NCBI GenBank assembly: GCA_050733195.1
Contig: JBOHSH010000114.1
Span: forward strand, 5,389 to 69,388
Length of the DNA: 64,000 nt
Origin: Gemmatimonadales bacterium
GTDB lineage: Bacteria; Gemmatimonadota; Gemmatimonadetes; Gemmatimonadales; GWC2-71-9
Direction: 5' to 3'
Within the stretch, counting starts at the first letter, position 1. Each line of letters begins with the position of its first letter. Position numbers and translations under genes: made by a program. The notes beneath the pieces were generated by a model, which was not told the DNA's origin, did not search any database, and saw only the letters and a list, made by a program, of their open reading frames with translations. Positions 58,717 to 59,932 of the stretch are shown here, in pieces.

Positions 58717-59932
58717 ACCACACCACCGCCCCCACTCCCAGCGCCACCGCCGACGCGACGAGAGCCACCGCCTGGCCCTGGGTCTCGTACATCCATCCGA
58801 ACAGGAGTCCCGCGGGCAGCGCCGCGGCGCCGGCGAGTCCCTGATAGATCCCGAAGGCCCGGCCGGTCCGGACCGGGGCGAGCCGGGTGACGGCCAGCCG
58901 CTCCGCGGGCTCCACGAGGCCGGCGCCGACGCCGTACGCCAGAAACACCGCCACCGCTCCCTCGGCTCCGGCGACCACGGCGAACAGGACCAGAATCCCC
59001 GCATAGACCAGCGAGCCGAGCGCCAGCGACGATCGCACACCGGCCCGGTCCGCCAGCACCCCGCCGGGGTAGCTCGCCACGCTCCGCACGACATGAAGCC
59101 CCGCCCAGGCAAGCGGGATCATCGCAACCGCCACACCCGCCTCCTGGAGCCGGAGCAGCAGCAGCGCCTCCGGAATCCGGCCGGCGCTGAGCAGGACGAG
59201 CACGGCCAAAGGCCCGGTGAACGGGGAACGGGCAACGGGGAACGGTGATGGTTGTCGGTTGATCGGTGACGGTGAATCCATCACCGTACCCCGTTTACCG
59301 TTTACCGTTGACCTTTCACCGTGTCGCCCCAGCCAACGCAGCACCACCGCCAGCACGACTATCGCCGCGACGGCCGGGACCAGGCTCGCGGCTATCACCG
59401 AGCGCGGATCGCTCCCGGCCGAGAGCATGAGCCAGGCGGTGAGCGAGCCGAGCACCGCGCCCAGGTGATCGGCTCCGCGATGCAGCCCGAAGGCCCGGCC
59501 TCGAAGCGGTACTGGAGTGACTCGGGAGAGAAGCGCATCGCGAGCGGGCGAGCGCAGTCCCTTGCCCAGACGGTCGAGCATCCTGAACGCGATCACCTGC
59601 CACGCGGCGGACGCGACCGCGATGAGCGGCCGTACCAGCAGCGCGAGAGCGTAACCGACGGCAATGAGCGGCCTGGTCCAGCCGGAGCGGTCGGCAAGGC
59701 GGCCGCTCGCGACACGCACCGCGGAGGCCGTCAGGTCCGCGGCGCCATCGAGCGCTCCGAGGGCGAGGGCCCCGCCGCCGAGCGGGCCCGTGATGAGCGC
59801 CGGCAGCACGGGGTACACCATCTCGCTCGCGAAGTCGTTGAAGAGCGAGACCGCGCCGAGGCCTTTGACCTCGCGGGGAAGCCTCTCCCCCTCGGCGCTT
59901 GGTGCCGCCCCCGCCCCCGCGGCCTCAGCCAT
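58694..59932 (-). CDS. MFS transporter carrying an in-frame repeat insertion in the central loop
   Basis: 412 aa from ATG 59932 (residue 64 of the track ORF). 6+6 TM layout and an MFS loop motif (GRLADRSGWTRP). The central loop HGERSTVNGKRGTVMDSPSPINRQPSPFPVARSPFT is encoded by repeat DNA. Confidence 0.8.
   Translation of the reverse strand: MAEAAGAGAAPSAEGERLPREVKGLGAVSLFNDFASEMVYPVLPALITGPLGGGALALGALDGAADLTASAVRVASGRLADRSGWTRPLIAVGYALALLVRPLIAVASAAWQVIAFRMLDRLGKGLRSPARDALLSRVTPVPLRGRAFGLHRGADHLGAVLGSLTAWLMLSAGSDPRSVIAASLVPAVAAIVVLAVVLRWLGRHGERSTVNGKRGTVMDSPSPINRQPSPFPVARSPFTGPLAVLVLLSAGRIPEALLLLRLQEAGVAVAMIPLAWAGLHVVRSVASYPGGVLADRAGVRSSLALGSLVYAGILVLFAVVAGAEGAVAVFLAYGVGAGLVEPAERLAVTRLAPVRTGRAFGIYQGLAGAAALPAGLLFGWMYETQGQAVALVASAVALGVGAVVWWTVNGER
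59215..59322. repeat. intragenic inverted heptamer-repeat element (108 nt) inside the MFS gene
   Basis: ggtgaacggggaacgggcaacggggaacggtgatgg..ccatcaccgtaccccgtttaccgtttaccgttgacctttcaccgtg. The units are the same as in the intergenic arrays. The two arms are inverted, and the length is a multiple of 3. Confidence 0.85.

Follow-up and report, generated by a model that had tools for sequence, protein, structure and literature searches.

A translated inverted pair of heptamer-repeat arrays forms the central linker of a Gemmatimonadales MFS transporter

A stretch of 64,000 nt from the contig JBOHSH010000114.1 of a Gemmatimonadales bacterium (assembly GCA_050733195.1, positions 5,389 to 69,388 of the forward strand; hereafter the window) was analyzed with regard to a 108-nt repeat element that lies inside a gene for a transporter of the major facilitator superfamily (MFS). 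The open reading frame (ORF) that hosts the element encodes an MFS_1 protein (PF07690, E = 1.6e-24, 86.9 bits vs. a cut-off of 33.4, match at residues 27-241) and is 100% identical to the NCBI protein MGH7560963.1 ("MFS transporter, Gemmatimonadales bacterium"), which derives from a metagenome-assembled genome (MAG). The AlphaFold2 model of this protein, built on 26 orthologues (pLDDT 88, pTM 0.87), showed the MFS architecture, with two six-helix bundles (helices within residues 20-204 and 239-408) joined by a central linker. The helices 184-204 and 239-250 bordered a coil at residues 205-238, and pLDDT fell below 50 for residues 210-234. The first-pass annotation had proposed a repeat element in frame in the MFS gene, in a permissive loop between the two six-helix halves. 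The first point was confirmed by repeat detection, by the inverted repeat and by translation, and the second by the modeled coil between helix residues 204 and 239. In the predicted structure the element is exactly the linker between the two halves, a disordered coil at a permissive site. Its peptide, HGERSTVNGKRGTVMDSPSPINRQPSPFPVARSPFT, is read from the minus strand in an open frame of 36 codons; these codons occupy 59216-59323, one base off the limits 59215-59322 that had been drawn in that annotation.

The 108 nt of the element (59215-59322) were 7-periodic throughout and could be divided into about 15 contiguous heptamer units. On the plus strand, about nine units of the form CGGNNAN (CGGTGAA, CGGGGAA, CGGGCAA, CGGGGAA, CGGTGAT, GGTTGTC, GGTTGAT, CGGTGAC, and GGTGAAT) were followed by about six units of the complement (CCATCAC, CGTACCC, CGTTTAC, CGTTTAC, CGTTGAC, and CTTTCAC), and the polarity switched at 59276/7. 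Tandem Repeats Finder (TRF) delimited three arrays of period 7, at 59215-59245 (4.4 copies), 59246-59267 (3.0 copies), and 59291-59322 (4.6 copies). The best inverted repeat (I1) paired 59216-59251 with 59278-59313 around GGTGATGG..CCATCACC, with arms of 36 nt, a complementarity of 83% and a spacer of 26 nt, so that the mutual inversion of the arms described beforehand was upheld. A small tip hairpin was also present in the central stretch (inverted repeat I14, 59264-59272 / 59278-59286). The fold of the mRNA strand reached -56.9 kcal/mol (z = -3.1), and one of 200 shuffled sequences folded as well. The tract was impure, with no more than two identical units side by side, and the G-tracts of the plus-strand arm were GGGG, GGG, and GGGG, with only GG elsewhere. 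The features of the locus are collected in Table 1.

Table 1. Coordinates of the MFS gene, its repeat-encoded linker and the adjoining intergenic array (window positions).
Feature	Position	Strand	Description and basis
MFS transporter gene	58694..59932	-	412 aa + stop; ORF and translation, Pfam
N-terminal six-helix half	59324..59932	-	residues 1-203; AlphaFold2, Pfam MFS_1
Repeat-encoded linker	59216..59323	-	36 codons, His204-Thr239; translation; predicted disordered cytoplasmic linker between transmembrane helices 6 and 7 (TM6-TM7)
C-terminal six-helix half	58697..59215	-	residues 240-412; AlphaFold2, alignment
Arm A (3' arm in mRNA)	59215..59251	.	GGTGAAC GGGGAAC GGGCAAC GGGGAAC GGTGATGG; TRF, I1; encodes QPSPFPVARSPFT
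Central stretch	59252..59277	.	7-periodic, GGTTGTC GGTTGAT CGGTGAC GGTGAAT; TRF 59246-59267; holds the polarity switch
Arm B (5' arm in mRNA)	59278..59322	.	CCATCAC CGTACCC CGTTTAC CGTTTAC CGTTGAC CTTTCAC; TRF, I1; encodes GERSTVNGKRGTV
Paired array in the CstA-MFS intergenic region (convergent genes)	58629..58719	.	(GGGGAAC/AGGGAAC)n, then (CCGTTCC/CCGTTCA)n; TRF; I10, I16, I18

The flanks of the element (...aaaggcc on one side and gtcgccc... on the other) did not contain any direct repeat, and hence no target-site duplication was found. The 36-nt center did not have a second copy in the 64-kb window with up to three mismatches. A search of the element against Rfam did not return anything above the gathering score, only sub-threshold matches to generic miRNA hairpins. 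The terminator and promoter scans did not yield anything meaningful, with no terminator-like site at 58400-60000. The locus was also found in an independent MAG, GCA_975101925.1, which aligned to the window over 5318 nt without gaps and with an identity of 99.38%. None of the 33 mismatches fell in the element, and neither its copy number nor its length had changed.

A protein search with the host gene gave thousands of relatives. The sample used for comparing the linkers consisted of 80 loci from GTDB genomes, 80 metagenomic loci retrieved with the N-terminal half as the query, and 10 further contigs (loci labeled L0xx-L1xx). The fold of 132 linker loops, 81 of them genome-derived and the rest from the independent metagenome sample, was scored by z, and a hairpin was considered significant when z was below -2. 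Two classes of linkers were observed across about 200 orthologues. About half of the orthologues (62/132 scored loops) had short linkers of 23-28 aa, of the form RGx...DAxGRVFW and without periodicity, whereas the other 70 loops spanned 29-63 aa. In the genome-derived set, 41 of the 81 loops were no longer than 28 aa, with a mean fold z of +0.3 and a single significant hairpin, vs. 17 significant hairpins, mostly of period 7, in the 40 longer loops. The metagenome sample behaved in the same way (1/21 short vs. 15/30 long loops), and the pooled figures were 2/62 and 32/70. Short linkers included the deepest branches of a midpoint-rooted neighbor-joining tree, and the short repeat-free linker, judging from these comparisons, is likely to be the ancestral state. 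An ancestral stem in the short-linker orthologues was considered and rejected, their mean fold z being +0.3 and -0.3.

The arrays of the long linkers started at the same codon whatever their unit, just past the VL-(R/K)-(G/S/T)-V end of TM6, and carriers of such a tract at this codon were found in related soil bacteria forming a large Gemmatimonadales clade. The unit GTCAACG/CGTTGAC gave rise to linkers of the type SVNGQRSTVNG...DRSPLTVDAVG, the unit GGTGAGC to GERLAVSG, and the unit GAGTCGC/GCGACTC to SRVTS...DSRL. Further units were GGGAGTC, GTTGACC, and GAGTCAC, together with 8-mers (GGCGGACC, in the linkers of L081 and L109), 9-mers, and an 11-mer. Units of about 11 nt, GGGGTC(A/G)GACC, made up nested hairpins in the 171-nt linker of L011 and at the contig end of L120.

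The linker of the window, GERSTVNGK...ARSPFTG, was of the GTCAACG/GGTGAAC type. Its motifs STVNG and RSPFT were also found in L006, L062, L086, and many metagenomic proteins, and the homology of arm B with the STVNG arm was evident from L006, L062, L086, and L087, in which both the motif and the codon position are the same. Moreover, repeat-encoded linkers homologous to it (SVNGQRSTVNG...DRSPFTVDAVG) occupied the same codon in orthologues with an identity of 55-68%. The motifs held in common with the orthologues indicated that the tract of the window was inherited and not private to this lineage. With respect to a short linker of 24-28 aa, the net excess of the element was about 14-17 codons, and the array had overwritten the DAxGRxFW motif that most orthologues keep; this motif was lost in several lineages without any obvious replacement. 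None of the orthologues had a cleanly empty site between identical flanks; they formed instead a graded series of arrays departing from the same codon. Hence, the insertion claimed in the first-pass annotation holds insofar as the tract is extra with respect to the likely ancestral linker, but not as a discrete 108-nt insertion arisen de novo. Likewise, the prediction that the loop would be absent from orthologues was borne out for the short linkers and contradicted by the homologous repeat linkers at the same codon. Homologous loops in repeat-free genomes had been named in advance as evidence against an insertion. The loops found were indeed homologous, but the genomes that carry them are not demonstrably free of repeats, though their local flanks are poor in arrays.

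A rapid change of the linkers was evident among close relatives, since orthologues with cores 95-99% identical carried different ones. The loci L169, L170, and L084 shared 90-92% identity over about 930 nt of flanking coding DNA, and their linkers were wholly different: a decayed tract in L169, 12 direct GGTGAGC units in L170, and a CCGTTGAC...GTCAACGG hairpin in L084. The hairpin of L084 (1103-2389) belonged to the same unit family as those of L006 and L086 but had the opposite polarity, with the CCGTTGAC array first and the GTCAACGG array second, which suggests the inversion of an array segment by template switching. In L086 a near-perfect hairpin of GTCAACG x4 and CGTTGAC was observed (z = -6.4), while in L087, 94% identical to it, GTCAACG x4 was faced by CCGCTCA x4 (z = -2.2), indicating that the arms can homogenize separately. 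One-armed direct arrays were also found (L083, L170, L147, and L014); those of L083 (316-1596; 17 units) and L170 (96-1376; about 12 units) were in-frame GGTGAGC arrays with a super-period of 21 nt. On the evidence of these sequences, turnover of the linker is far faster than point substitution.

A heptamer array runs through all three codon phases, and wherever a unit would have given an in-frame TGA or TAA, it was mutated. In L083, 5/5 units in the TGA-reading phase had C or T at base 4, whereas the other 12/12 kept G or A. The same pattern was observed in the 5' arm of the window, where the phase-1 units were GGTCAAC and GGGGTAC, and GGTGAxx and GGTAAAC stood in safe phases. The unit GGGGAAC and its complement were free of stops in all six frames (each strand, every frame). 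Linkers of the GER type had lengths of 31, 38, 45, and 52 aa, that is, steps of 7 aa or three units; this ladder was limited to the GER-type series, and the length differences among close relatives overall were not cleanly multiples of 7 aa. The orthologue series and the avoidance of stops both supported the earlier proposal of a slippage-driven change filtered by the reading frame.

Host-genome repeats were counted over the 64-kb window. About 15 loci with heptamer or octamer arrays were found, roughly one per 4-5 kb, and period-7 arrays amounted to about 2.3 per 10 kb. The use of the same units inside and outside the gene, as previously proposed, was corroborated: the GGGGAAC dimer GGGGAACGGGGAAC, with at most one mismatch, had 21 matches vs. 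0.04 expected by chance, at five loci (23868, 47263-47318, 55594-55641, 58633-58712, and 59216-59243). This unit, used by arm A, is the commonest intergenic unit of the genome. Inverted repeats of at least 26 nt within 120 nt were present at six array loci, together with one weak non-array pair (33597-33761), and the MFS element was the only intragenic one among the array inverted repeats. When an array was considered intragenic if an ORF spanned it with coding-type G+C content at third codon positions (GC3) on both sides, about 14 of the 15 array loci lacked a spanning high-GC3 ORF and the MFS element was the sole exception. The check for further intragenic copies suggested in the first-pass annotation did not yield any within the window.

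The intergenic inverted pairs able to form long hairpins were located at 11011-11174, 40286-40385, 43197-43373, 58629-58719, and 61533-61649, all of them just past stop codons or between convergent genes. Single arrays were found at 539-581, 1998-2038, 21118-21216, 23864-23886, 47229-47322, and 55554-55645. The unit families were NNNGAAC (GGGGAAC, TCAGAAC, and CCAGAAC), GGGGACT/CCCTAGC, and GTCAACC. Octamer arrays stood alongside the heptamers at 21809-21875, 37555-37579, 39031-39061, 47229-47247, and 55554-55581, with the units GCTCCCTG (x8.4 and x3), GGCCGTCC (x3.9), GGGAGCCG, and AGACGGGC; the repeat process is thus not strictly specific for 7 nt. The CCCCGTT x3 array at 23864-23886 was placed 10 nt past the stop of a plus-strand gene (end 23853) and also within the 3' tail of an ORF that converges with it on the minus strand. 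Beyond the array, the GC3 of this ORF fell from 0.91 to 0.51; a change of the C-terminus induced by the repeat may have occurred here.

Regarding the neighborhood of the host gene, the MFS start and the stop of DUF885, the gene upstream, overlapped by 8 nt (59925-59932), and the same overlap was present in the orthologues. The order DUF885-MFS-CstA, with CstA convergent, was kept in L081-L088 and L169 as far as the contigs reached. The overlap and the order conserved across Gemmatimonadales suggest a conserved operon. At the other end of the gene, the stop codon (58694-58696) and the last six codons (TVNGER) lay inside the right arm (58683-58719) of the intergenic paired array, so that repeats encode the C-terminus of the host protein as well. 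Among the orthologues, the C-terminal tails varied. The contig of the independent MAG GCA_975101925.1 (L088) ended at the window position 58683, the center of this intergenic hairpin.

Taken together, we consider it probable that the element is a resident, partly decayed inverted pair of heptamer arrays, of the simple sequence repeat (SSR) kind, which evolves in place and is translated as the disordered linker of the MFS protein. In a large clade of Gemmatimonadales orthologues, a repeat tract has occupied this one codon position, immediately past TM6 with its "VL-R/K-G/S-V" ending. Within the single arms, replication slippage would expand, contract, and homogenize the units, and intramolecular template switching between the arms would copy or invert segments and thus build or restore their complementarity. 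In the literature, template switching is described as creating and maintaining hairpins, homogenizing the arms of inverted repeats, and inverting spacers (PMC8794818, PMC8604942, and PMC7202029). Selection would act mainly as a filter, requiring a total length multiple of three, no in-frame TGA or TAA, and a tolerable linker, and the hairpin itself would be devoid of function. In the case of the window, the 5' arm of the mRNA keeps the orthologous STVNG-type units, and the 3' arm carries GGGGAAC units like those of the intergenic arrays.

Several observations weigh against this interpretation. Period-7 arrays were scarce in the flanks of the repeat-linker loci, 3 in 82 kb, compared with the density found in the window. 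A spill-over from locally repeat-rich DNA was considered as the origin of the linker tracts and was rejected, since the flanks had 0.36 arrays per 10 kb at repeat-linker loci vs. 0.92 at short-linker loci (a small sample of about 5 kb per locus). Hence, the linker tract is not a simple spill-over, and something keeps this site special. Secondly, the heptamer GTCAACG, including its A/T-ending codons in genomes of about 90% GC3, was common to genes that are close to saturation at 4-fold sites (identity 0.48-0.59), a conservation that neutral turnover alone does not obviously predict. A heptamer vocabulary common across genomes was also considered and rejected, as the intergenic units were genome-specific and only the linker units recurred across genomes. 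Thirdly, about half of the long linkers formed significant hairpins, which also fits selection for structure. Furthermore, the mutation process was not directly observed, the element being unchanged between the two 99.4%-identical MAGs, and a midpoint-rooted tree does not tell how often the tract arose or was lost. A cause specific to the site could be a seed, as the linker is bordered by a conserved V (GTC) and a conserved D (GAC) with complementary codons. Selection for the hairpin could be another. In some short-linker orthologues a weak complementarity of 5-6 bp (GGCGTC/GACGCC) was seen between the RGV and (V)DA codons, which is a possible seed but not evidence of one.

Selection for the hairpin is the most probable of the alternatives, although we regard it as unlikely. 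According to it, an mRNA stem-loop or a DNA cruciform between the two half-transporters would be a functional cis-element, whose sequence may vary freely provided that the hairpin or tract persists. It might make translation pause, so that insertion of the N-domain precedes synthesis of the C-domain, or be a site for mRNA stability or processing. The recurrence of significant hairpins at one codon with unrelated units, in both samples of long linkers, speaks for it, as do the near-perfect cases (L006, z = -8.0; L044, -5.9; L050, -10; L163, -9.1), the stem of the window itself, its occurrence where the flanking DNA is poor in arrays, and the heptamer kept at synonymous positions across saturated divergence. 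On the contrary, about half of the orthologues have short and unstructured loops, and close relatives (86-94% identity in the N-half) range from z = -6.4 (L086) and -5.3 (L089) through -2.2 (L087) and -0.3 (L090) to +1.6 (L091). Moreover, one-armed arrays are common, the arms of the window have drifted to 83% complementarity, and no Rfam family reached the threshold. The low weight given to this alternative follows from half of the family being unstructured and from close relatives spanning from a perfect hairpin to none. The narrower form of the proposal, in which a position-specific signal for a co-translational pause or mRNA structure is selected and its stem is continually rebuilt from tandem units, is likewise held to be improbable. 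If true, it would explain the persistence at one codon across the order, the presence amid array-poor DNA, and the conservation of the heptamer at synonymous sites.

Selection could also act on the linker peptide, through its length, charge, or flexibility, with the repeats merely generating variation; we find this rather doubtful. R, S, P, G, and T abound in the peptides, which are predicted to be disordered, and linker length (23-63 aa) and content vary among near-identical proteins. Nevertheless, no peptide motif is conserved across unit types, and the otherwise conserved DAxGRxFW has disappeared from several lineages with nothing evident in its place.

A recent insertion of a mobile palindrome into the linker of this lineage, surviving because its length is a multiple of three, is very unlikely. 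Such an element would resemble a miniature inverted-repeat transposable element (MITE) or a Rickettsia palindromic element (RPE). In its favor, the element has terminal inverted symmetry, units matching the dispersed intergenic arrays, and a permissive loop in which it is translated in frame, and in-frame palindromic elements within ORFs are known in Rickettsia (PMC10969869). The MITE-like route put forward in the first-pass annotation was, however, not sustained: there was neither a target-site duplication, nor a second copy of the center in the window, nor a clean empty site. In addition, the arrays of the window differ in unit, copy number, and spacer, so no element consensus emerges; homologous arrays occupy this codon in the orthologues; no more than about 15 codons were gained on balance, and an ancestral motif was overwritten; and the 99.4%-identical strain has the identical element. 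Overall, this explanation was largely refuted.

There is also little chance that the tract is a contingency locus, in which the slippage of one heptamer would shift the frame and turn the transporter off and on (phase variation). The unit of 7 nt is not a multiple of three, several orthologues keep four identical units per arm, and one-armed arrays reach 12-17 GGTGAGC-type units in mid-gene. Four metagenome contigs (L095, L109, L120, and L157) ended inside the linker arrays; this may be due to heterogeneity of the populations or simply to the difficulty of assembling such tracts. However, none of about 154 complete orthologue genes was out of frame, a weak test on consensus assemblies, although it included 74 genes found with the N-terminal-half query, which would not penalize frameshifts. 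Moreover, the tract of the window has at most two identical adjacent units, and no difference in length was seen between the two MAGs. Finally, although assemblies of this group do break at repeat arrays, a chimera or mis-assembly of repeat reads has a negligible probability and is excluded, at the level of assemblies, by the identical 108 nt in GCA_975101925.1, within gap-free sequence, the frame being intact and equivalent tracts being present in orthologues from many assemblies.

No new kind of mobile element and no new regulatory system is revealed by these results. Their interest lies in an order-wide natural series of short-repeat hairpins inside a gene, which nucleate at one codon, by far outpace the protein around them in their expansion, inversion, and decay, and are shaped by the reading frame, every third unit being mutated against a stop. 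They also add Gemmatimonadales to the bacteria with abundant heptamer arrays, for which the literature search did not find any report in Gemmatimonadota, and whose origin is still unexplained in Xanthomonas and cyanobacteria. As a practical warning, such tracts break assemblies and yield odd low-complexity peptides in annotated proteins.

The element is best read as a case, in coding position, of the heptameric G-rich SSRs that Rehm et al. (2015, PLoS One, PMC4692102) described in Xanthomonas, with the unit GGGAATC, and in Nostoc, with GGGGA(C/T)T (the cyanobacterial STRR). In those genomes, 70-75 cases each of two convergent arrays able to form stem-loops were described; the SSRs are mostly intergenic and near ORF ends, some over stop codons, and a minority overlap ORFs, 7-11% in Xanthomonas and more in Nostoc (PMC4692102). 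The arrays of the window are likewise tandem 7-nt units, variable in sequence and copy number, with a convergent complementary pair in the MFS gene and five other such pairs. Their unit is dispersed at many loci, mostly intergenic and near ORF ends, and GGGGAAC resembles GGGAATC and GGGGACT. In contrast, many unit families coexist per genome here, and the element lies wholly inside an ORF and is translated, has orthologous positions across an order, and bears the mark of stop avoidance. The formation of G-quadruplexes, for which units with four or more G-tracts would be expected, is central to that paper (PMC4692102); the element has three tracts of at least three G.

Other known systems share part of these traits. 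RPEs are palindromes of about 100-150 nt that lie in frame inside genes, are translated, and are tolerated at permissive sites (PMC10969869). The element resembles them and intragenic MITEs in being palindromic, in frame, translated, and at a permissive site. RPEs, however, are dispersed mobile copies of a family consensus, whereas the element has neither further full-length copies in the window nor a target-site duplication and consists of short tandem units that change in place. Phase-variable contingency loci also have, inside an ORF, an SSR whose unit length is not divisible by three, but no out-of-frame alleles were found among the orthologues and the tract of the window is impure. Quasipalindrome or template-switch mutagenesis perfects imperfect inverted repeats, including in coding DNA (PMC7202029, PMC8794818, and PMC8604942). 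The co-variation of the arms and the opposite-polarity allele L084 fit such a process, which here, unlike the documented cases, would act together with slippage on tandem-repeat arms. Lastly, the tandem repeats of Borgs evolve fast, arose in place in ORFs, and add disordered peptide (bioRxiv 10.1101/2022.05.18.492195). The element is similarly a fast-evolving tract in an ORF that encodes a predicted disordered peptide, but its 7-nt unit is not a multiple of three, its frame is kept only by 21-nt steps or compensation, and its arrays form inverted pairs.

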